From the NCBI RefSeq assembly GCF_044647545.1, contig NZ_CP172818.1: 64,000 nucleotides of DNA; one strand, 5' to 3'. The notes beneath the pieces are model-generated. The model worked only from the letters and a program-made list of their open reading frames with translations, was not told where the DNA came from and did no database searches. Position numbers and translations under genes: made by a program. How positions within the stretch are numbered: the first letter of the stretch is position 1; every line of letters starts with the position of its first letter. Source of the stretch: Escherichia coli. GTDB lineage: Bacteria; Pseudomonadota; Gammaproteobacteria; Enterobacterales; Enterobacteriaceae. Positions 8,566-46,453 of this stretch are shown one piece after another.

Positions 8566-10149
8566 ATGGAATGGATTGCCGATCCGTCTATCTGGGCTGG
8601 ATTAATCACGCTGATTGTGATCGAACTGGTCCTCGGCATTGATAACCTGGTCTTTATTGCCATCCTCGCCGAAAAACTACCGCCGAAGCAGCGCGACCGC
8701 GCACGGGTTACCGGGCTGCTGCTGGCGATGTTAATGCGCCTGTTACTGCTGGCGTCAATCTCCTGGCTGGTCACCCTGACTCAACCGCTGTTCAGCTTCC
8801 GCTCGTTTACCTTTAGCGCCCGCGACTTAATCATGCTGTTTGGTGGTTTCTTCCTGCTGTTCAAAGCCACGATGGAGCTGAACGAACGGCTGGAAGGGAA
8901 AGACAGCAATAACCCCACGCAACGCAAAGGTGCGAAGTTCTGGGGGGTGGTGACACAAATTGTGGTACTGGACGCCATCTTCTCACTCGACTCGGTGATT
9001 ACCGCCGTCGGGATGGTCGACCATTTACTGGTCATGATGGCCGCCGTCGTTATCGCTATCAGCCTGATGTTGATGGCCAGCAAGCCGTTAACGCAATTTG
9101 TTAACAGTCACCCGACGATCGTTATTCTCTGCTTAAGCTTCCTGTTGATGATTGGCTTTAGCCTGGTGGCAGAAGGTTTCGGCTTCGTCATTCCGAAAGG
9201 CTACCTGTACGCTGCTATTGGTTTCTCGGTGATGATCGAGGCGCTCAATCAGTTGGCTATCTTTAACCGGCGACGTTTTCTTTCCGCTAACCAGACGCTG
9301 CGCCAGCGAACTACCGAAGCGGTAATGCGCCTGTTAAGCGGGCAAAAAGAAGATGCGGAACTGGATGCCGAAACCGCGTCTATGCTGGTGGATCATGATA
9401 ATCAGCAAATCTTTAATCCGCAGGAACGGCGGATGATTGAGCGGGTACTTAATCTTAACCAGCGTACCGTCAGCAGCATTATGACGTCGCGCCACGATAT
9501 TGAGCATATCGATCTCAACGCACCGGAAGAAGAAATCCGCCAGTTGCTGGAGCGAAATCAGCACACGCGACTGGTGGTTACTGATGGCGATGACGCGGAA
9601 GATTTGCTCGGTGTTGTTCACGTTATCGACCTGTTACAACAGTCACTGCGCGGCGAACCGCTCAACCTGCGGGTGTTGATTCGCCAGCCGCTGGTGTTCC
9701 CGGAAACCTTGCCGTTGTTACCTGCCCTGGAGCAGTTCCGTAATGCCCGCACACACTTTGCTTTTGTAGTGGATGAGTTTGGCTCGGTGGAAGGGATTGT
9801 GACATTAAGTGACGTCACAGAAACCATTGCCGGTAACTTACCGAATGAAGTGGAAGAGATCGACGCCCGCCATGATATTCAGAAGAATGCCGACGGTTCC
9901 TGGACGGCGAATGGTCATATGCCGCTGGAAGATCTGGTGCAATATGTGCCGCTGCCGCTGGATGAAAAACGTGAATATCACACCATTGCCGGGCTATTGA
10001 TGGAATATTTGCAGCGTATTCCAAAACCTGGCGAAGAAGTTCAGGTGGGGGATTATTTGCTTAAAACGTTGCAGGTGGAAAGCCATCGCGTGCAGAAGGT
10101 GCAAATTATTCCGCTACGTAAGGATGGCGAGATGGAGTACGAGGTGTGA
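8566..10149 (+). CDS. yegH: Inner membrane protein YegH (TerC-like membrane domain with CBS and CorC/HlyC domains)
   Basis: ORF 8500..10149; start taken at [16 protein letters not shown] (ATG 8566), 527 aa; N-terminal transmembrane segments, C-terminal CBS pair. Confidence 0.85.
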
Positions 10150-10348
10150 TGGTATCAGTCATTTTACCCGATAGCCGAAAGGAATAAGATGAGGGAACCG
10201 CGCCAGCGGCGATTTACCGCCGGGAACCCGGGTTGCCAGGGTGGTGGCGATTGAGCCACCCTGGCACGTTCACCGGCTTAAGCGTTCCATAGTAGCGAGG
10301 AACATCAAGTGAACGGAACAGCCTTCGATCTTACATATTCAGAATATA

Positions 10349-10531
10349 ATGGTGCCGCCCGCTCGCGATGCTGATGGGATCTATCACGTCATGTATGTCG
10401 CAAAATTTGAAGAAGCGGTTTACGTATTGCATTGTTTTCAAAAAAAAACACAAACTACCAGTCAATCGGAAATTGATTTAGCCAAACGACGCTATAAAAA
10501 ACTTGTTCAGGAGGGGAAAAATAAAAATTAA
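10349..10531 (+). pseudogene. C-terminal remnant of a RelE/ParE-superfamily (HigB/Gp49-like) toxin
   Basis: 60-aa ORF ...GIYHVMYVAKFEEAVYVLHCFQKKTQTTSQSEIDLAKRRYKKLVQE carries the YVLHxFQKK motif of this toxin family; a stop lies immediately upstream in frame and no intact N-terminus or antitoxin is present. Confidence 0.45.
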
Positions 10532-10800
10532 AACCTTTGATAGTGGGTGGGATACGGTGAAGGACCCCCCTGAAGGAGGGGAAAAATTGGGGTTCGCGCC
10601 GGGTTGTAAAGAATAATTAAAAATGGAATGGAAAAAAAAGGGTTAGACCGGGTCGGAGAAATTTTCTTTTGGGGGGGTCACACACCCCCGTATTTTAAAT
10701 TCGACAAGGGGAAATCTCAATTTTTTATATATAAATAAATATAATATTATGGGCGCATATGGAGGTTCATATAATAAATATAAAAAATTAAAATACACAT
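10532..10800. repeat. Low-complexity, homopolymer-rich block (probable sequence artifact or insertion)
   Basis: Runs such as gaaggacccccctgaaggaggggaaaaattgggg, tttgggggggtcacacacccccg and AT-only stretches; composition unlike flanking E. coli DNA; no coding or RNA signature. Confidence 0.6.
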
Positions 10801-10820
10801 AGGCTTTATAGTAATAAAAA

Positions 10821-17723: not shown

Positions 17724-18578
17724 CTACAATTCGGCTTCGTCTGGTTGCCAGCCTTCCGTATACCAGATATGCAACAGCGCATAAGAACGCCAGGGCTTCC
17801 AGCGTTCGGCATAACGGCGGATTTGTGCCGGTGTCATTCCCGGAAATCGCTGTTTAATCAGATAATCATCCGGCAGGAAAACATCTTTCGCCTGCCAGCC
17901 GCGCAAGGCGAAATAATTCGCCGTCCAGCGCCCGATACCCGGAAAAGTTTGAAGCGTTTTCATCGCTTGCTCTACGTCGCCCGGAATTGTCATTGATAAG
18001 GTGCCCTCCAGCGCCGCATTTGCCAGATGAATCAGTGCCTCTGCCCGTTTCAACGGCATACCTAACGCTTTTAATGCCTGCGGGTCGGCTGCAGCCAGCC
18101 GCTGAGGCGTGGGGAAGCAGACATAATCCGGAAAATCATCCAGCCGTTCGCCATAAAGCTGTGCCACTCTGGCGGTCAATTTTGCCGCCATCGCCACGCT
18201 CACCAGTTGGCCTAAAATCGCCCGCACGCCCTGCTCAAAAACATCAACACAACCAGGTAAACGCAATCCGGGCCGCGCTGCGCCTAACTCGCCCAACGCC
18301 CCATTAACAATCTGCGGGTTACATTGCAGATCAAACAGGCGGCTCATTTTCGCCAGACACTCAGCGGCAACAGGTTCTAAACCTGCACTTAAATTTATGT
18401 GCAGAGTATGGCTGGCTATATCCGGAATAGCAGTCACCACGCCGCGATATTCGCCCACCGCCAGACTACGGGCATAATAATCGTCAGCGACCGTTTCCAC
18501 ACCGTTCACCGCACGGGCGGCGAGAAATCCCAACATCCACGACCAGTCATATGGCGGCTGCCAGTTCAGGGTATACAT
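17724..18578 (-). CDS. alkA: 3-methyladenine DNA glycosylase II
   Basis: 284-aa ORF MYTLNWQPPYDWSWMLGFLAARAV... with helix-hairpin-helix glycosylase core. Confidence 0.9.
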   Translation of the reverse strand: MYTLNWQPPYDWSWMLGFLAARAVNGVETVADDYYARSLAVGEYRGVVTAIPDIASHTLHINLSAGLEPVAAECLAKMSRLFDLQCNPQIVNGALGELGAARPGLRLPGCVDVFEQGVRAILGQLVSVAMAAKLTARVAQLYGERLDDFPDYVCFPTPQRLAAADPQALKALGMPLKRAEALIHLANAALEGTLSMTIPGDVEQAMKTLQTFPGIGRWTANYFALRGWQAKDVFLPDDYLIKQRFPGMTPAQIRRYAERWKPWRSYALLHIWYTEGWQPDEAEL

Positions 18579-18627
18579 CGCATCTCCTTTTTAATCCGCT
18601 TTCAGCATAAACGTTATTCAGACGCTA

Positions 18628-18640
18628 CGCTTTGCTTTCA
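18628..18640 (-). promoter_or_regulatory. Probable Ada box of the alkA promoter
   Basis: Minus-strand GAAAGCAAAGCG upstream of alkA resembles the Ada-binding AAAGC(A/G)AA motif. Confidence 0.45.
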
Positions 18641-18711
18641 TATTCCGGTTGTCGCGACGGCAACATTTCGCTAAAGTCTCGCCCCTTCTTCACCGGCATG
18701 GGGATTATTTC

Positions 18712-20064
18712 GTGTTTATTGGTTTTGATTACGGTACAGCAAACTGTTCAGTGGCGGTCATGCGCGACGGTAAGCCGCAATTACTGAAAATGGAAAACGA
18801 CAGCACGCTGCTGCCTTCAATGCTTTGCGCGCCAACGCGTGAAGCGGTAAGCGAATGGCTGTACCGCTATCATGATGTTCCGGCAGACGACGATGAAACG
18901 CAGGCGCTGCTGCGTCGGGCGATTCGTTATAACCGCGAAGAAGATATCGATGTTACGGCGAAAAGCGTGCAGTTCGGTCTTTCCTCACTGGCACAGTACA
19001 TTGATGATCCAGAAGAAGTGTGGTTTGTGAAATCACCAAAATCGTTCCTCGGTGCCAGCGGCTTAAAACCGCAGCAGGTAGCGCTGTTTGAGGATCTGGT
19101 CTGCGCAATGATGTTGCACATTCGCCAGCAGGCACAGGCGCAATTGCCAGAAGCGATTACCCAGGCGGTGATTGGTCGCCCGATCAACTTCCAGGGGCTG
19201 GGCGGCGATGAAGCAAACGCCCAGGCACAAGGGATTCTGGAGCGCGCAGCGAAGCGTGCCGGGTTTAAGGACGTGGTATTCCAGTACGAGCCGGTGGCGG
19301 CTGGGCTGGATTACGAAGCCACCTTGCAGGAAGAAAAACGGGTGCTGGTGGTGGATATTGGTGGTGGTACGACTGACTGTTCTTTACTGCTAATGGGGCC
19401 ACAGTGGCGTTCGCGCCTCGATCGTGAAGCCAGCCTGCTGGGTCACAGTGGTTGCCGTATTGGCGGTAACGATCTGGATATCGCACTGGCGTTTAAAAAC
19501 CTGATGCCGTTACTGGGCATGGGTGGCGAAACCGAAAAAGGCATCGCCCTGCCGATTCTGCCGTGGTGGAATGCGGTTGCCATCAACGACGTCCCTGCGC
19601 AAAGTGATTTCTACAGTAGTGCCAATGGTCGTCTGCTTAACGATCTGGTACGCGATGCCCGCGAACCGGAAAAAGTGGCCCTGTTACAGAAAGTCTGGCG
19701 TCAGCGTTTAAGCTATCGCCTGGTGCGCAGCGCGGAAGAGAGCAAAATCGCCCTTTCCAGCGCAGCGGAAACCCGCGCATCGCTGCCGTTTATCAGCGAT
19801 GAACTGGCAACGCTGATTAGCCAACAGGGGCTGGAAAACGCCCTCAGTCAGCCGCTGGCGCGAATTCTGGAACAGGTGCAACTGGCGCTGGATAACGCCC
19901 AGGAAAAACCGGATGTCATCTATCTGACTGGTGGTAGCGCCCGATCGCCGCTGATTAAAAAAGCGCTGGCAGAACAGTTGCCGGGCATTCCGATTGCAGG
20001 CGGCGATGACTTTGGCTCCGTCACCGCCGGGCTGGCACGCTGGGCGGAAGTGGTATTTCGTTAA
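18712..20064 (+). CDS. yegD: Hsp70-family (actin-like ATPase) protein YegD
   Basis: ORF 18649..20064; GTG start at 18712 (VFIGFDYGTANCSVAV...) gives the expected 450 aa; DxG phosphate-1 motif of the Hsp70/actin fold. Confidence 0.85.
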   Translation: MFIGFDYGTANCSVAVMRDGKPQLLKMENDSTLLPSMLCAPTREAVSEWLYRYHDVPADDDETQALLRRAIRYNREEDIDVTAKSVQFGLSSLAQYIDDPEEVWFVKSPKSFLGASGLKPQQVALFEDLVCAMMLHIRQQAQAQLPEAITQAVIGRPINFQGLGGDEANAQAQGILERAAKRAGFKDVVFQYEPVAAGLDYEATLQEEKRVLVVDIGGGTTDCSLLLMGPQWRSRLDREASLLGHSGCRIGGNDLDIALAFKNLMPLLGMGGETEKGIALPILPWWNAVAINDVPAQSDFYSSANGRLLNDLVRDAREPEKVALLQKVWRQRLSYRLVRSAEESKIALSSAAETRASLPFISDELATLISQQGLENALSQPLARILEQVQLALDNAQEKPDVIYLTGGSARSPLIKKALAEQLPGIPIAGGDDFGSVTAGLARWAEVVFR

Positions 20065-20076
20065 TTGAAAAATGGC

Positions 20077-22017
20077 TCAGCAGCGGCTTAAATCAGCCTG
20101 CGCCTGAGCCAGTTTTTCTGCCGCCTGACGTAACGGTTCCATCAACGGCATGGTCCGTGCTGGAGCTTGAAGGCGGAATCGCTGCAACTCTGTCGCGCCG
20201 ACAGTCAACGTCGATTCCAGCCGATGTCGTTTGGCGGCCATTTTAGTCAGTACCGCTTGTCTGTCTGCAGGCGTTACCGCTTCGTTCGGCCTGAAAACAA
20301 AACGGCGTTCGCAACTCGCTTTCCAGTCGATAACCGCCTGGGTCAGATGATCACCAAAACCTTTTACTTGCTTAACGCTCCGTCGGGTAACGTCTGCCGC
20401 CGTTTCAATACCAAAGGACCGTAACGCCGCTTTACGCGCAGGGCCAACGCCGGGAATAGAGGCAACATCAATAAAAAATCCCTCCAGAAACTTCTGCTTC
20501 TGCCGTTCCCTTGCGGTGTCCTGAAGTGCTGCCAGATCGCGCTTTTCTTCTTCCGGTAACCCAAGAATTTCGTCCTTCATTTTTTCGAGCATCGTCCGTT
20601 TGGCGATAAAACCTTCCAGCCCGCCCAACTGTTGGATCTGGCTGACTAAATGGTCATAGTCCATTTTTGCGCGATTAAAAGCCTCTCTTCGTTGCTGGAT
20701 TTCTGCTTTGTACGCTTTGCTTGTCAGGCTGCCAATAATCCAGATAGCCGACAGCACAGGAACCAAAATAATATAACGTGGTTCTGTCTGAAGGCCGCAA
20801 AGCAACAGCGATAACGCTGACAGTGCGATCTCAATCAGAATGATGTATTCACGCCTTAACAGGCCTAAAGGAAGCGGCCTGCCAGTCGGTTGGAAATGAT
20901 CGGGTAATGGCAGTTGCAATGCTGGCGGTGCTACTGACGCCATCACCATCGCCCAGACTTTCGCCAGCACAAAATCACCGCTGGTGGTAATGACCTCTTC
21001 GCCGAGATCAATAAAATAGATAACGCCTTGATTATCCAGAGCACACCACGGGCAGTCAGCCAAATGACCGGGATAAACATGCATTGCCGAAACGGTACAT
21101 TTCTTTAACTGTTGGCGTAGTAAATCAAGTGCCGCTACCCACGCTTTTGCCGTCGGACGCCCGGTTGCCACGCCACTTTCCGTGAATGCCTGCTGAAACA
21201 TGGCTTCAACATCGCCCGGTAACATCGACAGCGGAATAGATCGTGGCGGCGGTTTTAAACCACGTCGCTGATTATCTGACGCGTAGGCATAACGGAAATG
21301 GGCAATATCCGTCTCCAGCGCATTACCCGCATCAGAGATAAGCGGTACACCGGAATAAGGATGCCGACCACCAAACAAGACGTGAAAAATCAGCAACGCA
21401 AGGCCAAAATTATCGTGATTCGCGGTGCGTTCAAAGCCAACAAATGACGACAAGGTTTGCAGCTCTGGCGACGTAAAATGCGACACGCCCACTTCGCATA
21501 AATGCAGCGTTCCATTGGCGTTAATCTGAAAGGAGTCGCTATCAATCAACACCACTTTGCTGTCACGGCCTACCATAAAGCTGTTCTGGTTTACGTCACC
21601 CACGACGTGCCCGTGCTCGTGAATCGTAGCAAAAGATGAAGCAATATTGCGCGCAACATAGAGTAGAAAATCCCACGCACAATGAGGGTAACGTTGACGA
21701 CGATGTGCCGGGCTATAGATCATATGAATCGGTTCTTTACCAGAAACTTTTGGCATCATAAAACCGATAACCTTTCCGCCTCGTCCACCGTGAAGCGTTG
21801 CCTGCGGCCAGGCGACATAATTCAACAATTGCGCGTCAGCTGTCGCAGCCATAAAGGCAAGTTTGTCCTGTTTTAAGGCGGGTGGCGGCGTGTGATAAAT
21901 CTTGGCGACGCTATCGACAAACTCCTCGATATCATAAACCGCACCTTCGCCGCCTTTGCCCAGTTCACGGCCAGGCGTAACGCACTCACCAGTAGCAGTA
22001 TATAAAGTGGGTTTCAT
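20077..22017 (-). CDS. yegI: Protein kinase-like protein YegI (N-terminal kinase-like domain, C-terminal membrane-associated region)
   Basis: ORF 20077..22053; start taken at [30 protein letters not shown] (glycine-rich loop); ATG confirmed at 22015-22017; start choice uncertain. Confidence 0.8.
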   Translation of the reverse strand: MKPTLYTATGECVTPGRELGKGGEGAVYDIEEFVDSVAKIYHTPPPALKQDKLAFMAATADAQLLNYVAWPQATLHGGRGGKVIGFMMPKVSGKEPIHMIYSPAHRRQRYPHCAWDFLLYVARNIASSFATIHEHGHVVGDVNQNSFMVGRDSKVVLIDSDSFQINANGTLHLCEVGVSHFTSPELQTLSSFVGFERTANHDNFGLALLIFHVLFGGRHPYSGVPLISDAGNALETDIAHFRYAYASDNQRRGLKPPPRSIPLSMLPGDVEAMFQQAFTESGVATGRPTAKAWVAALDLLRQQLKKCTVSAMHVYPGHLADCPWCALDNQGVIYFIDLGEEVITTSGDFVLAKVWAMVMASVAPPALQLPLPDHFQPTGRPLPLGLLRREYIILIEIALSALSLLLCGLQTEPRYIILVPVLSAIWIIGSLTSKAYKAEIQQRREAFNRAKMDYDHLVSQIQQLGGLEGFIAKRTMLEKMKDEILGLPEEEKRDLAALQDTARERQKQKFLEGFFIDVASIPGVGPARKAALRSFGIETAADVTRRSVKQVKGFGDHLTQAVIDWKASCERRFVFRPNEAVTPADRQAVLTKMAAKRHRLESTLTVGATELQRFRLQAPARTMPLMEPLRQAAEKLAQAQADLSRC

Positions 22018-22774
22018 GGTACCACAGCGCCAGTGCCAACGTTTTATCATCATCGGTACGCTCGTTTACCGCCGGGCTGGACAAAAACTGCTTTAACAAT
22101 TCAGGTAATAAATCGAGTTGTTCCTGCGTTGCTGACGCCAGTCCATTGAAAAACGGGGTAAAGAAAGGCACATGCGGAGAATTATCCAGCATATTTAACG
22201 CCAGTCGCTGAATACCATCCGTAAATGCTGCAACTTTATGCGCACGCTCAGTACTGGTGTAAGTTTCCAGTCTGGAAACAGCATCGTCATCGGTAATGAA
22301 GTGCGTCATATTGGCATATTCCCCCACCATCGGCGTGAGCGGCAGTTGCAAACCGTGACCCAAATCTACCACCACGCCGCCATCGCCAATCTGCATAATC
22401 AAGGTGCCATTAGCTGATGAAATCAATCCCAAAAACGTGCAGGCAAAATCGCGAACCGCTAATTCTTTGGCTTCCGCCTCGGCAAAAAGTCGCTGACGAA
22501 TGGTCAGCACAATGTCCGTTGCGAGGACATCATTAAGCCCCAATTCCCCGCCCTGCACTTTTTGCGACATATAAGCCATCGCTTCATTGACGGCGAGCAT
22601 CGCACCTTCGCCACCCTGCGAGACGCTGCCTGCGCCATCAGCGACAAATACCGACAATAATGGCTGCTGGTCTTCTAACCAGGCAACCTGCATCTGGCAG
22701 GCATCCTGGCAAGACAAGTCAGCGCTGATGTGCGACGTTCCAACGGTTGATGCATAGACCAGACGCCAGCTCAC
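21986..22774 (-). CDS. yegK: PP2C-type Ser/Thr protein phosphatase YegK (PphC)
   Basis: 262-aa ORF with PP2C-like acidic motifs (VFVADGAGS..., IGDGGVVV); 4-bp overlap with yegL and 32-bp overlap with the yegI start as called. Confidence 0.8.
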
Positions 22775-23430
22775 ACTGACGTCCAGCCTTTTGGCGCTTC
22801 CAGCACAACTTCCGTTCCCGGCGTGGAGCGGGAAACCGAACGCAGCGAACTGGATAACCAGCTAAACAGTTCACGGAATTGTAATCCCTGCAGTGGCAAA
22901 GGCTGACGAACGCTGATTTGTGCCAAAGTCTTCATATCCGCCCCCTGAACACCGATGGAAAAGAAGGCAAACTTCTTATCTTCTTCCCCCTGAAACACTT
23001 TGTTGGCGGCAGCCTGCCACTCATCGGTTGGAGCGCCATCGGTGATCAGGAAAATCCACGGGCGATAATAGGAAATACCATTGGCGCGATACTCACGTTT
23101 GCGCTCCTCAACCATATCCAGGGCTTTGGTAATGGCAGCGCCCATTGGTGTATCGCCCTGGGCAAACAGGATGGGCGGGAAAAAATTAGCGGCGCTGGTA
23201 AAGGGTTGTTCCACATGCACCGGGCCGAACGTCACAATACCGAGTTCCACTCTTTTTAAGGCCAGCGAATCGGCAAGCAGCTCATCGCGAAAGGTAACCA
23301 ATCCGGCGTTAAGTTCATTAATAGGTCTACCGTTCATAGAACCAGAAACATCCAGCAGCAAAATGCAGGGACAACGTGGTTCCGGGTTACTGGCAAAATC
23401 GCTGGTGGCAAACGTGATTTGTTCGCTCAT
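22771..23430 (-). CDS. yegL: von Willebrand factor A (vWA) domain protein YegL
   Basis: 219-aa ORF with MIDAS motif (LLLDVSGSM) typical of vWA domains. Confidence 0.85.
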
Positions 23431-23611
23431 AAGAAATCCTTTCTTAGAGAATTATTGAGGTCCGGTATCATACCGATTGCAATAATGAAATAAGAGCAAA
23501 CGAAGAAACTTTCAGAATTAGGCCCGGCGGCGCAGAAAATTTTGCTATTCGCCTCGCAAGAACGGAGAGCCGTCGATTGACACTAAGGGCGGAGTGACAT
23601 AATTTCAGGAG

Positions 23612-23755
23612 TGAGGGTTAGGGAGAGGTTTCCCCCCTCCCCCTGGTGTTCTTAGTAAGCCTGGAAGCTAATCACTAAGAGTATCACCAGTATGATGACG
23701 TGCTTCATCATAACCCTTTCCTTATTAAAAGCCCTCTTCTCCGGGAGAGGGTTTC
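23612..23755 (+). ncRNA. sibA: SibA antisense sRNA (type I antitoxin of ibsA)
   Basis: Strong promoter ttgaca-N17-taattt at 23577-23605; transcript fully antisense to ibsA; terminator hairpin ccctcttctccgggagaggg + ttt at 23732-23754; ~144 nt. Confidence 0.6.
23652..23711 (-). CDS. ibsA: Type I toxin IbsA (19-aa hydrophobic peptide)
   Basis: Minus-strand ORF atgatgaagcacgtcatcatactggtgatactcttagtgattagcttccaggcttactaa = MMKHVIILVILLVISFQAY. Confidence 0.7.
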   Translation of the reverse strand: MMKHVIILVILLVISFQAY

Positions 23756-23947
23756 CCGTTTCAGCGTCCCGCTGAAATCGTCGGCTTACCTCCTTTCGCC
23801 CTGAATGCAGTCTATCGCTAACGCGTGAACAAAATAGTTTCCCCTGTGATTATTGCGTAACGTCTCGCAAAGAATATTTGCTCGCAGGATCGCAGACTAC
23901 AAAGCCTGCGGATTGACAATCTGATTGTGAAGGCATACTTTCAGGAG

Positions 23948-24083
23948 TGAGGGTAGAGCGGGGTTTCCCCCGCCCTGGTAGTCTTAGTATGCTGGCCAGC
24001 TAATCACTAAGAGCACCACGATGATGATCCACTTCATCATGACCCTTTCCTTATTTAAGGCCCCTTCCTCGGGAGGGGCTTTC
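23948..24083 (+). ncRNA. sibB: SibB antisense sRNA (type I antitoxin of ibsB)
   Basis: Promoter ttgaca-N17-tacttt at 23913-23941; antisense to ibsB; terminator hairpin ccccttcctcgggagggg at 24061-24078; ~136 nt. Confidence 0.6.
23984..24040 (-). CDS. ibsB: Type I toxin IbsB (18-aa hydrophobic peptide)
   Basis: Minus-strand ORF translating to MMKWIIIVVLLVISWPAY, paralogous to ibsA. Confidence 0.65.
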   Translation of the reverse strand: MMKWIIIVVLLVISWPAY

Positions 24084-36044: not shown

Positions 36045-36545
<501 letters not shown>

Positions 36546-38015: not shown

Positions 38016-38099
38016 TTAATTTCGATTATTTTTCCCGGATGGAAAATTCTTAGAAACCGATCACATACAGCTGCATTTATTAAGGTTATCATCCGTTTC

Positions 38100-38190
38100 G
38101 CTGAAAAACATAACCCATAAAATGCTAGCTGTACCAGGAACCACCTCCTTAGCCTGTGTAATCTCCCTTACACACACGGGCTTATTTTTT
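38100..38190 (+). ncRNA. cyaR: CyaR (RyeE) Hfq-dependent sRNA
   Basis: gctgaaaaacataacccataaaatgctagctgtaccaggaaccacctccttagcctgtgtaatctccc...gggcttatttttt matches CyaR as I recall it, including the terminator hairpin and U-tail. Confidence 0.8.
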
Positions 38191-46425: not shown

Positions 46426-46453
46426 AAAAAAAACGGCCTCCCGGGGAAGCCGT
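46426..46453 (-). terminator. Rho-independent terminator downstream of fbaB
   Basis: Minus-strand hairpin cggcttccccgggaggccg followed by T8 (+ strand aaaaaaaa at 46426-46433). Confidence 0.55.

Follow-up and report, generated by a model that had tools for sequence, protein, structure and literature searches.

Introduction

The TerY-P triad, in which a TerY-like vWA protein is combined with a PP2C phosphatase and a Ser/Thr kinase, was described by Anantharaman, Iyer and Aravind in 2012, as relayed in PMC11090510 and PMC4978471. According to those papers, the three domains are encoded in one tight operon that is kept across phyla and sometimes lies inside restriction or defence loci, and in the triads associated with CoCoNuT systems the kinase domain is immediately followed by a zinc-binding element. 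Triads whose kinases carry C-termini other than that of YegI protect against T7-like phages (PMC11090510, PMC7699616, 10.1101/2022.08.12.503731). The TerY-P system of Gao et al. 2020, represented in PADLOC by vWA, PP2C and STK_OB models, follows the same three-component logic and is active against T7-like phages (Autographiviridae); its kinase ends in an OB fold and has neither a membrane anchor nor a helix-hairpin-helix (HhH) motif. Comparable pairs are also known from mycobacteria and Bacillus, where a membrane-anchored Hanks-fold kinase is dephosphorylated by a PP2C phosphatase encoded in the same operon (PknB-PstP and PrkC-PrpC).

One of the very few Ser/Thr kinase/phosphatase pairs in Escherichia coli, YegI and PphC, was characterised by Rajagopalan, Nagle and Dworkin (J Bacteriol 2018 and FEBS Lett 2020; preprints 10.1101/303594 and 10.1101/819920). 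YegI was shown to be an active Ser/Thr kinase that crosses the inner membrane twice and has both termini in the cytoplasm; its activity was shown in vitro with the REL606 protein, Mn2+ was preferred, and self-activation proceeds by autophosphorylation of serines in and near its DSDS loop (10.1101/819920). PphC is an active PP2C phosphatase that dephosphorylates YegI (10.1101/303594), and no substrates beyond YegI and PphC themselves are reported in the literature. The coupling of pphC to yegI through an ATGA overlap and the interruption of this arrangement by yegJ in K-12 were described by Rajagopalan and Dworkin (10.1101/303594, 10.1101/819920). Transcription of yegL-pphC-yegI was undetected under any tested condition in several studies (including 10.1101/303594), and weak stationary-phase expression in REL606 and recurrent yegI mutations in long-term evolution lines have been reported (10.1101/819920, 10.1101/303594). 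Overproduction of YegL, and likewise of YegI, raises endogenous DNA damage in E. coli (10.1101/354589).

Results

Organisation of the yegL-pphC-yegI locus

The window analysed in this study is a 64,000-nt stretch of an E. coli genome (GCF_044647545.1, contig NZ_CP172818.1). Its ORF list places three tightly packed, co-directional genes, yegL, pphC (yegK) and yegI, on the minus strand at 20077-23430, as stated in the initial annotation, and a near-identical genome carries the same gene names in RefSeq. All but three of the 5,426 complete E. coli genomes contain the locus (5,423); since the ORFs are also long, a chance find was ruled out. The locus is the E. coli yegL-pphC-yegI operon in its compact form without yegJ, which is already published (10.1101/303594, 10.1101/819920), and the initial annotation had been right not to call the system undescribed. 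The window shares with the published operon the REL606/O157-type order, with pphC immediately upstream of yegI, as well as the 646-aa length and all key residues of YegI and D46 of PphC. Within Escherichia, the cassette belongs to the fixed core genome; it has ordinary GC content, lies between yegD and mdtA and does not form part of a variable defence island; the locus of E. marmotae is syntenic with that of E. coli. The IS4 listed under some best matches lies between ibsA and ibsB, outside the triad, and is irrelevant to it.

yegL (22771..23430, minus strand) encodes a TerY-like vWA/MIDAS protein of 219 aa, which matched Pfam VWA (PF00092, E 2.2e-9) and VWA_2 (PF13519, E 4.2e-7). The MIDAS DxSxS motif is intact (DVSGS, residues 27-31), and D27, S29, S31, T94 and D131 were invariant among the homologues compared. 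The conserved, Ser-rich C-terminal tail includes a GW dipeptide; S193, S195, S200, S202, P204, G205, G215 and W216 in this tail were invariant in eight homologues (58-85% identity). A tblastn search of plasmids with YegL returned 2,331 records, mostly ter-operon plasmids of Klebsiella, Escherichia, Enterobacter and Salmonella, whose vWA proteins (annotated TerY-C or VWA) showed 28-36% identity with YegL (E 4e-16 to 3e-10). Judged by these alignments, YegL is TerY-like, its closest relatives being vWA proteins encoded in ter (tellurite resistance) loci.

pphC (21986..22774, minus strand; start GTG at 22774) encodes a PP2C-type Ser/Thr phosphatase, whose ORF in the window is 262 aa long. Residues 11-220 matched Pfam PP2C_2 (PF13672, E 7.4e-51), and the catalytic D46 (in DGAGS), D131 and D186 were invariant in nine homologues. 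The 4-nt overlap of yegL and pphC that had been noted earlier was read as GTGA at the junction.

The region upstream of yegL (23431..23576, minus strand) holds the yegL leader and the presumed operon promoter; yegL has a ribosome-binding site (AAGGA) 7 nt upstream of its ATG, and a consensus scan of 23431-23576 gave no strong sigma-70 match. No Shine-Dalgarno sequence precedes yegI. Promoter and terminator consensus scans gave counts no higher than those of shuffled sequence, with no promoter-like or terminator-like site at the gene junctions. Since the reading frames overlap, yegI lacks a Shine-Dalgarno sequence and the junctions carry no such sites, we infer that yegL, pphC and yegI are co-transcribed.

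The pphC/yegI junction

Canonical PphC has 253 aa and ends at a TGA that overlaps the yegI ATG in a 4-nt ATGA (about 22014). The initial annotation had the pphC stop within about 30 bp of, or overlapping, the yegI start; an overlap exists in both cases, and its length of 32 nt in the window stems from a private 1-nt deletion. Direct comparison with NZ_CP033850.1 located this deletion at 22021..22022, where one A of GGTAACC (plus strand) is lost to give GGTACC. The last two pphC codons are thereby frameshifted, LP and the stop are replaced with 11 other residues, and the ORF, now ending at 21986, encodes 262 instead of 253 aa, unlike the published PphC. Of the complete-genome records, 3,469 have the compact junction; all of these aligned with a 1-nt gap, and none matched the deleted form exactly. 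The last two residues of PphC are variable among homologues.

We consider it an even chance that the deletion is a sequencing or assembly error and that the true junction is the canonical ATGA overlap. It is common to no complete genome, and over about 50 kb the window differs from its nearest relative mainly by isolated single-base deletions, with only about three isolated substitutions; two of the single-base deletions hit homopolymers of G and C, and one of them breaks yehB. On the other hand, AA to A at 22021/22 is a change in a very short run, and private frameshifts are known to occur, which speaks for a real allele.

The initial annotation had also stated that yegJ separates yegI from yegK in K-12 and is absent from the window, and alignment to K-12 bore out both points. 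K-12 has the same flanks as the window, with yegD at one end and ibsA/sibA and mdtA at the other, and its proteins are about 94-96% identical, but in its locus yegJ lies between yegI and pphC-yegL and is read from the opposite strand. There, a 725-nt AT-rich segment replaces the junction, which recodes the last two residues of PphC and about the first 16 residues of YegI and carries yegJ (DUF2314) and divergent sigma-70 promoters with H-NS binding, none of which is present in the window.

Of the 5,426 complete E. coli genomes, about 3,468 have the compact junction and 1,934 (36%) carry the yegJ spacer, so that the K-12 form is not confined to K strains. Outside E. coli, every locus sampled (E. 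marmotae, other genera and plasmids) had the compact junction. Comparison of the yegI-yegK spacer across genomes thus indicates that the compact junction is no assembly artefact, being the majority state in E. coli and the sole state seen elsewhere. Since E. marmotae and every sampled non-Escherichia locus carry it, the compact junction is ancestral.

Domain architecture of YegI

yegI (20077..22017, minus strand; start ATG at 22017 as in RefSeq) encodes a Ser/Thr protein kinase of 646 aa. Its product is identical to WP_022645848.1, because the sequence showed zero differences from FDAARGOS_497 over 17734-22021. Residues 1-303 (21109..22017, minus strand) form a divergent Hanks-type kinase domain according to an AlphaFold2 (AF2) model, Foldseek and conserved residues. 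The AF2 model built from 111 sequences had a pLDDT of 95.1; a run with 14 close homologues, in which the kinase domain reached a pLDDT of 63, was set aside in its favour. When the model was compared with the PDB by Foldseek, more than 1,900 kinase chains matched at E<=1e-3, the best being CaMKII, PknB, BRAF and Aurora B (E about 1e-7, target TM 0.65-0.74, about 300 columns). YegI thus has the bilobal protein kinase fold.

The kinase motifs comprise VAK39, the catalytic loop VGD141VNQNS, and DSDS (159-162) where DFG is expected. K39, D141, N143, D159, D161 and S162 were invariant in 111 homologues; these include the ATP-anchoring lysine and the catalytic aspartate. The residues needed for activity (K39, D141, S153, D159, S160, D161 and S162) are all present in the window, and all but S153 and S160 were invariant in the same set. 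YegI has neither the canonical HRDxxxxN nor the DFG loop, a departure that was reported earlier (10.1101/819920). The Pfam Pkinase profile gave no match to YegI at E<=10, and a YegI family profile gave no kinase match among PDB sequences, so that the kinase was revealed by the structure-based search only; some relatives of YegI carry weak precomputed Pkinase matches. With NCBIfam, the three proteins gave only sub-threshold matches (LanL/LanKC kinase domains, Stp1, cobaltochelatase vWA and DNA polymerase IV HhH). The vWA/MIDAS, PP2C and kinase assignments of the initial annotation are therefore upheld, by Pfam and, for the kinase, by Foldseek on the AF2 model.

The zinc knuckle and the HhH region of YegI had not been picked up in the initial annotation. 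Residues 304-330 (21028..21108, minus strand) form a predicted zinc knuckle (C307, H313, C322-P-W-C325), modelled by AF2 as two short strands and a helix; C307, H313, C322, W324 and C325 were invariant in 111 homologues of 32-62% identity, and this invariant CHCC set together with the model suggests metal binding. After residue 350 the model is all helical. Two hydrophobic helices at residues 389-435 (20713..20853, minus strand) form a membrane hairpin, with Kyte-Doolittle peaks at 391-409 and 415-433 and AF2 helices at 389-409 and from 415 onward, in agreement with the two-pass topology found by experiment (10.1101/819920). The hydrophobic segments, previously placed at the C-terminus, are thus central (about residues 391-433 of 646). 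Residues 436-511 (20485..20712, minus strand) are long cytoplasmic helices (model helices 415-465, 467-485 and 487-511) and probably constitute a coiled coil or dimerisation stalk.

Residues 512-572 (20302..20484, minus strand) contain two HhH motifs, IPGVGPARKAAL and VKGFGDHLTQAV, supported by Pfam HHH_5 and by conserved Gly and Phe residues (G523, G525, G553, F554 and G555 in the 111-homologue set). The HhH assignment depends on a marginal HHH_5 score (E 7.6e-4); NCBIfam gave a weak match to the HhH region of DNA polymerase IV, and among the source names is 'DNA-binding helix-hairpin-helix protein with protein kinase domain'. The pair is predicted to be a non-specific DNA-binding module.

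Distribution of the cassette outside E. coli

The vWA (218-226 aa), PP2C (252-261 aa) and kinase genes abutted in the same order at nearly every sampled locus outside yegJ-type E. coli. The exceptions were a PP2C call with a shorter ORF and, for P0137, the first place shown, whose shortness prevented a judgement. The loci came from Beta-, Gamma- and Alphaproteobacteria and from large plasmids, and their neighbourhoods were unrelated. YegI homologues were present in 83 plasmid records and, at E<=1e-30, in 4,227 clusters (50% identity). No full-length YegI homologue was found in phage genomes, and a prophage origin of the cassette was rejected on that ground. yegD (Hsp70-like), the ibs/sib modules and yegH (TerC family) were rejected as cassette members, as none was adjacent in any other genus sampled.

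Defence neighbours confirmed with PADLOC were PifA (1e-118), AbiH, JetB (3e-93), BrxR-like WYL, PDC-S36/PD-T4-1, GmrSD-like (2e-213) and HEC-05. As a raw share, no more than roughly half of the foreign loci that were informative had such neighbours. The triad is thus a widespread self-contained cassette that is plasmid-borne and present in some defence islands.

Comparison with TerY-P and PknB-type systems

The architecture of the TerY-P triad was found in yegL-pphC-yegI, namely a TerY-like vWA, a PP2C and a Ser/Thr kinase gene that are adjacent, co-directional and kept as a unit across taxa, and the zinc knuckle follows the kinase domain of YegI as the zinc-binding element does in the CoCoNuT-associated triads. 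By contrast, the E. coli locus stands alone, without McrBC/CoCoNuT or ter genes, and its kinase adds a transmembrane hairpin, a coiled coil and two HhH motifs. These features and the zinc knuckle also set YegI apart from the kinase of Gao et al. 2020; neither Pfam nor the AF2 model gave a C-terminal OB fold in YegI. YegI and the kinase of a Pseudomonas entomophila TerY-P locus (recovered with a published TerY-P primer) showed 29% identity over only 72 residues around the catalytic loop.

YegI, PphC and YegL had no match to the PADLOC TerY-P models at E<=0.01; the system of Gao et al. 2020 represents another protein family. Other PADLOC models gave weak kinase-fold matches (PD-T4-6 and MkoA) for YegI and none for PphC and YegL. 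As a positive control, the P. entomophila locus scored 5.4e-230 with STK_OB and 3e-41 with PP2C. Since the models work on the control and miss all three proteins, the classification of yegL-pphC-yegI as a validated TerY-P defence system was rejected. The literature searched contained nothing linking yegI to phage and no phage-protection experiment on the three genes.

YegI and PphC resemble PknB-PstP and PrkC-PrpC in pairing a membrane-anchored kinase with an operon-encoded PP2C. YegI differs from PknB and PrkC in that it has no extracytoplasmic PASTA sensor, both of its termini being cytoplasmic, and in its non-canonical catalytic and Mg-binding loops (VGDVNQNS and DSD); over the fold alignment, YegI and PknB share 16-19% identity. 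Furthermore, a third, vWA gene is obligatory in yegL-pphC-yegI.

Discussion

The identity of the genes and their action as a kinase/phosphatase switch are held with high confidence. The earlier description of the locus as a eukaryotic-like Ser/Thr signalling cassette agrees with the published kinase activity and the published action of PphC on YegI (10.1101/819920, 10.1101/303594). As an overall explanation, we regard it as likely that the ancestral compact operon encodes a three-gene phosphorylation switch, most likely with a normally silent stress or defence role. One message from upstream of yegL would be translated with coupling through the GTGA and, normally, ATGA overlaps. PphC strips the autophosphates of YegI and thereby holds the kinase off, and YegL may be the third partner, serving as sensor/adaptor or as a substrate. 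With its coiled coil and two HhH motifs, the C-terminal cytoplasmic half of YegI would place a DNA-binding module at the membrane, and a cassette of TerY-P architecture would travel between genomes as a unit. From these last features (the HhH motifs at the membrane, the TerY-P architecture and the movement as a unit), the most likely role appears to be a normally silent stress or defence switch, in which foreign or damaged DNA or a metal-linked cue would lead to Ser/Thr phosphorylation. The overall explanation is further favoured by the defence neighbours, the TerY-like character of YegL, the DNA damage that follows overproduction of YegL or of YegI (10.1101/354589) and the phage protection given by other TerY-P triads. 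Against it stand the undetected transcription, the lack of substrates beyond YegI and PphC, the missing PADLOC TerY-P matches, the short similarity to the P. entomophila kinase, the fixed core position in Escherichia, the share of about half for defence neighbours, the absence of phage reports on yegI in the literature searched and the marginal HhH score. A defence or DNA-sensing role taken by itself is put forward tentatively.

The same genes may instead form an endogenous Ser/Thr signalling pair that controls housekeeping proteins, in stationary phase or under envelope stress for instance, and plays no part against foreign DNA. In that case YegL would serve as a scaffold and the HhH region would anchor the kinase close to the nucleoid. 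Presence in 5,423 of 5,426 E. coli genomes, synteny in E. marmotae and normal GC content accord with such a role, as do the weak stationary-phase expression in REL606, the recurrent yegI mutations in long-term evolution lines and the approximately 100 E. coli proteins that carry Ser/Thr phosphates with no assigned kinase (10.1101/819920). A regulator wired into its host, however, would not typically move as a unit to plasmids, unrelated neighbourhoods and distant phyla, and no host substrate is reported; we treat housekeeping regulation as a possibility of some weight, short of probable. It seems improbable that the operon no longer has a function and survives as a silent evolutionary remnant. 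Although its transcription was undetectable in several studies, the yegJ replacement is tolerated in 36% of genomes and the pphC end is frameshifted in the window, the three ORFs are intact in the genomes examined, the catalytic residues are invariant and the proteins are active in vitro (10.1101/819920, 10.1101/303594), and the frameshift alters just two non-conserved terminal residues of PphC.

A metal- or tellurite-type stress sensor, in which the MIDAS of YegL would bind a metal or metalloid and the kinase/phosphatase pair would transduce the signal, would account for the intact MIDAS, the 28-36% identity to ter-operon vWA proteins and the Mn2+ preference of YegI (10.1101/819920), and a metal-sensing phosphorylation switch was the role first proposed for TerY-P triads, as cited in PMC11090510. 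Nevertheless, the ter genes (terZABCDE) accompanied the cassette in no sampled locus, and the sole TerC-family gene in the window, yegH, lies about 10 kb off and is unlinked. MIDAS sites, moreover, mostly serve protein contacts and not free-metal sensing, and there is little probability that the cassette is such a sensor.

The operon, the enzyme activities, the membrane topology and the strain difference in yegJ were all in print in 2018-2020. What is added here are the junction counts, the ancestral state, the private deletion, the architecture of YegI, the spread of the cassette and its mismatch with the PADLOC TerY-P models. Extending the stress or defence reading, the cassette might be a distinct TerY-P-like branch of immunity or DNA surveillance, in which the HhH motifs of a membrane kinase would sense incoming or damaged DNA, PphC would be the brake and YegL a phospho-regulated partner; we offer this as a speculative and rather unlikely proposal. 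If it were true, a TerY-P-like branch would be fixed in the E. coli core genome, as hardly any defence system is, and about a third of strains, including K-12, would have the cassette uncoupled by the yegJ replacement. K-12 is the usual test strain, yet it carries the derived, uncoupled form of the operon. The triad is invariant, mobile, plasmid-borne, at times located among defence genes and outside current defence-finder models, which narrows the experiments that would be worthwhile.

Gene content and setting of the yegL-pphC-yegI locus

The window is E. coli chromosome, and its region 19500-24000 was matched in 5,423 of the 5,426 complete E. coli genomes, the best matches differing from it by one 1-nt gap only. 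On the matched stretch, the RefSeq gene order is yegD, then yegI, pphC (yegK) and yegL on the opposite strand, ibsA with an ibs-family toxin gene, and mdtA. On the minus strand, yegL (22771-23430) encodes a protein of 219 aa matching Pfam VWA (E = 2e-9), and its end shares GTGA with the start of pphC, a GTG at 22774 (Pfam PP2C_2, E = 7e-51). yegI (20077-22017, minus strand) encodes 646 aa, and its sole Pfam match was a marginal one to HHH_5 at residues 515-551. The ORFs, the Pfam matches and the RefSeq names showed that the initial annotation, which had read 20077-23430 as a module of a vWA protein, a PP2C phosphatase and a kinase-like protein, was right in its coordinates and gene content. 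The observation was thus confirmed and its interpretation supported, and its content is already in the literature.

The locus is the subject of two Dworkin laboratory papers (10.1101/303594, 10.1101/819920), so the finding as first noted had already been published. These papers report that PphC is an active Mn-dependent PP2C and that YegI is an active Ser/Thr kinase with non-canonical catalytic and DFG loops, which autophosphorylates at S153, S160 and S162 and is dephosphorylated by PphC. They place YegI in the inner membrane as a two-pass protein with both ends cytoplasmic, name the upstream vWA gene yegL, and describe an ATGA overlap of pphC and yegI in REL606 and O157:H7, with yegJ intervening in K strains. 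Expression of the locus was undetectable under standard conditions (10.1101/303594, 10.1101/819920; 2026 study PMC13232886), and YegL and YegI were both recovered in an overproduction screen for raised endogenous DNA damage (10.1101/354589). The only additions made here are a frameshift at the pphC-yegI junction that may be an error, the frequencies of the junction types, a domain map of YegI, and evidence showing that the cassette is a mobile triad not covered by current defence models.

The region just upstream of yegL holds two Sib antitoxin RNA genes (23577-23726 and 23913-24055; Rfam 147.5 and 136.8 bits), with the ORFs of ibsA and the ibs-family toxin (23652-23711 and 23984-24040) antisense to them; an IS4 element is found between the two Sib/ibs copies in some ST131-like genomes. 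At the other end, the stops of yegD (20064, plus strand) and yegI (20077, minus strand) are convergent and 12 nt apart, and no terminator-like hairpin is present between them, so the transcripts of both genes would overlap. Overexpression of yegJ is reported to induce yegD in K-12 (2026 paper). yegH (ca. 8566-10149), a gene for a TerC-family membrane protein, lies about 10 kb from yegL; this proximity is probably a coincidence because the two are unlinked in other genera.

Compact junction and yegJ spacer

In K-12 MG1655, yegJ (DUF2314) lies between yegI and pphC on the opposite strand, just as the initial annotation had it. Alignment of the K-12 and window junctions showed a replacement rather than a simple insertion: K-12 departs from the window right after the Trp codon two residues short of the PphC end and resumes about 16 codons into yegI, with an AT-rich segment of 725 nt between the breakpoints. 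The K-12 yegJ segment was found in 1,934 of the 5,426 complete E. coli genomes (90-100% identity), and the compact junction, in which pphC directly abuts yegI, in 3,468. The absence of yegJ from the window, for which a sequence error had been considered, is therefore real. PMC13232886 states that yegJ occurs 'only in K strains'; the spacer is far more widespread than this. E. marmotae, too, combines these flanks with a compact junction, and all loci sampled outside Escherichia were compact; the compact junction is therefore the ancestral state, from which the yegJ form is derived.

Within the K-12 spacer are an H-NS site and divergent constitutive sigma-70 promoters (PMC3946193), which give yegI a promoter of its own in that strain. 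At the compact junction of the window, no promoter for yegI was visible. RNase E has been reported to be bound by YegJ (2026 study, PMC13232886).

A private 1-nt deletion at the end of pphC

One A present in the nearest relative, FDAARGOS_497, is missing from the window at 22021/22 (GGTAACC to GGTACC). Read on the coding strand, PphC now ends in ...[18 protein letters not shown] instead of ...ALW-L-P-stop, the last two codons being frameshifted and the protein lengthened from 253 to 262 aa. The pphC stop is thereby relocated from the ATGA overlap, which is lost, to 21986-21988, 28 nt within yegI. All 3,469 complete-genome records that carry the compact junction aligned with one gap, and this deletion was in none of them. 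Since the two affected PphC residues are variable among homologues, the phosphatase fold should be unaffected. There is no Shine-Dalgarno sequence before yegI in the window, and yegI translation probably depends on termination-reinitiation; the deletion may therefore lower it.

Over about 50 kb of clean alignment, the window differed from FDAARGOS_497 mainly by isolated single-base deletions, with only about three isolated substitutions, and two of the deletions fall in G and C runs. This pattern suggests sequencing error, and the change at 22021/22 may be one such error. At 59573, a C run of 6 stands in place of the 7 in the nearest relative and breaks yehB, a fimbrial usher gene, into minus-strand ORFs of 693 aa (57434-59515) and 164 aa (59434-59928); the shorter run reflects an error in homopolymer sequencing, or else yehB is a pseudogene. 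At 46443, one G is lost from a G run in the gatY-fbaB intergenic hairpin. Other differences from FDAARGOS_497 were an ACAC insertion at 38170-38173 in a CA repeat within the CyaR sRNA gene (Rfam match 38098-38187) and an in-frame 3-nt deletion at 17734 in the 3' end of alkA. The window also differs in mosaic fashion from its closest complete genome at ca. 10165-10820, 36124-36545 and 56467-57441; parDE, a toxin-antitoxin pair, and the fimbrial gene yehA are present as divergent alleles, and the window is without the IS110 element and relE remnant found downstream of yegH in that genome.

Domain organisation of YegI, YegL and PphC

A YegI model built from a shallow alignment was poor, and one built from an alignment of 111 cluster representatives (32-62% identity) reached a mean pLDDT of 95.1 and a pTM of 0.84. 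In this model, residues 1-303 adopt a Hanks kinase fold, for which Foldseek against the PDB returned PknB, CaMKII, BRAF and Aurora B (E ca. 1e-7, target TM 0.65-0.74, 12-19% identity). The kinase residues G22, K39, D141, N143, D159, D161, S162 and E185 were invariant in the 111 sequences, in agreement with the residues important by experiment. A predicted zinc knuckle follows at 304-330, with C307, H313, C322, W324 and C325 likewise invariant. Two hydrophobic helices were assigned to 391-433 from the model and hydropathy, long helices extend up to 511, two HhH motifs are indicated at 512-572 by the marginal HHH_5 match and conservation, and a single long helix (583-645) ends the protein.

YegL carries a MIDAS DxSxS motif and shares 28-36% identity with vWA proteins of ter-operon plasmids, and is therefore TerY-like. 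The C-terminal 30 residues of the protein, [14 protein letters not shown]...GW, hardly vary among eight homologues (58-85% identity to YegL), and the conserved serines of this tail, S193, S195, S200 and S202, are candidate phospho-acceptor sites. PphC retains D46 and the other metal ligands.

Relation to TerY-P and distribution of the triad

The three-domain operon fits the description of the TerY-P triad, which consists of a TerY-like vWA protein, a PP2C and a Ser/Thr kinase (PMC11090510, PMC4978471); triads with an OB-fold kinase end protect against T7-like phages (PMC11090510, PMC7699616, 10.1101/2022.08.12.503731). The PADLOC TerY-P models gave no match to YegI, PphC or YegL. As a positive control, a published TerY-P sequencing primer was searched against genome contigs and led to a Pseudomonas entomophila locus, whose kinase (STK_OB, 5.4e-230) and phosphatase (PP2C, 3e-41) were both detected; this kinase shares 29% identity with YegI over 72 residues only. 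Membership of the validated TerY-P family was thus rejected, and the cassette is a mobile triad of TerY-P architecture outside current defence-system models.

The YegI-like family comprised 4,227 clusters (50% identity) at E <= 1e-30, and the top matches were mostly full length (ca. 645 aa). Klebsiella, Piscinibacter and Chromobacterium have homologues of about 60% identity, and homologues of 31-51% identity lie on 74 non-Escherichia plasmids from Agrobacterium, Rhizobium, Pseudomonas, Cupriavidus, Ralstonia, Sphingomonas and Deinococcus; no full-length homologue was found in phage genomes. At nearly all sampled loci, a vWA gene (218-226 aa) and a PP2C gene (252-261 aa) directly preceded the kinase gene, the exceptions being a PP2C call with a shorter ORF and a contig whose length did not permit a judgement. 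Gene neighbourhoods were unrelated between loci, and the kinase C-terminus varied within otherwise identical triads: one form of 351 aa, made up of kinase and knuckle, was followed by a separate 489-aa ORF, another was 1,010 aa long, and a third, on a Sphingobium plasmid, bears a fused topoisomerase-type C4 zinc finger. A Rhizobium rhizogenes plasmid carries the triad right behind a His-Xaa-Ser radical-SAM cluster (hxsB, hxsC, hxsA), with a DUF262/HEC-05 protein and a UvrD helicase encoded nearby.

Possible role of the cassette

Of the informative loci, about half had recognised defence genes within 8 kb, a proportion at most suggestive of an association. The neighbours confirmed by PADLOC were PifA (1e-118), AbiH, JetB (3e-93), BrxR-like WYL, PDC-S36/PD-T4-1, GmrSD-like (2e-213) and HEC-05. 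A role of the cassette in defence or DNA surveillance is possible but less likely than not. The main rival reading, in which the cassette signals endogenously to host substrates, gains support from the ordinary GC content of the locus and its fixed core position in Escherichia, and is a possibility short of likely.

It is very probable that the cassette forms a kinase/phosphatase switch in which YegI is active upon autophosphorylation and PphC reverses this. In the mechanism considered most likely, the three genes would be expressed as one translationally coupled transcript, and YegL would serve as sensor/adaptor or as substrate via its Ser-rich tail. The HhH region of YegI may bind DNA, and the switch would be triggered by foreign or damaged DNA or by a metal-linked cue.
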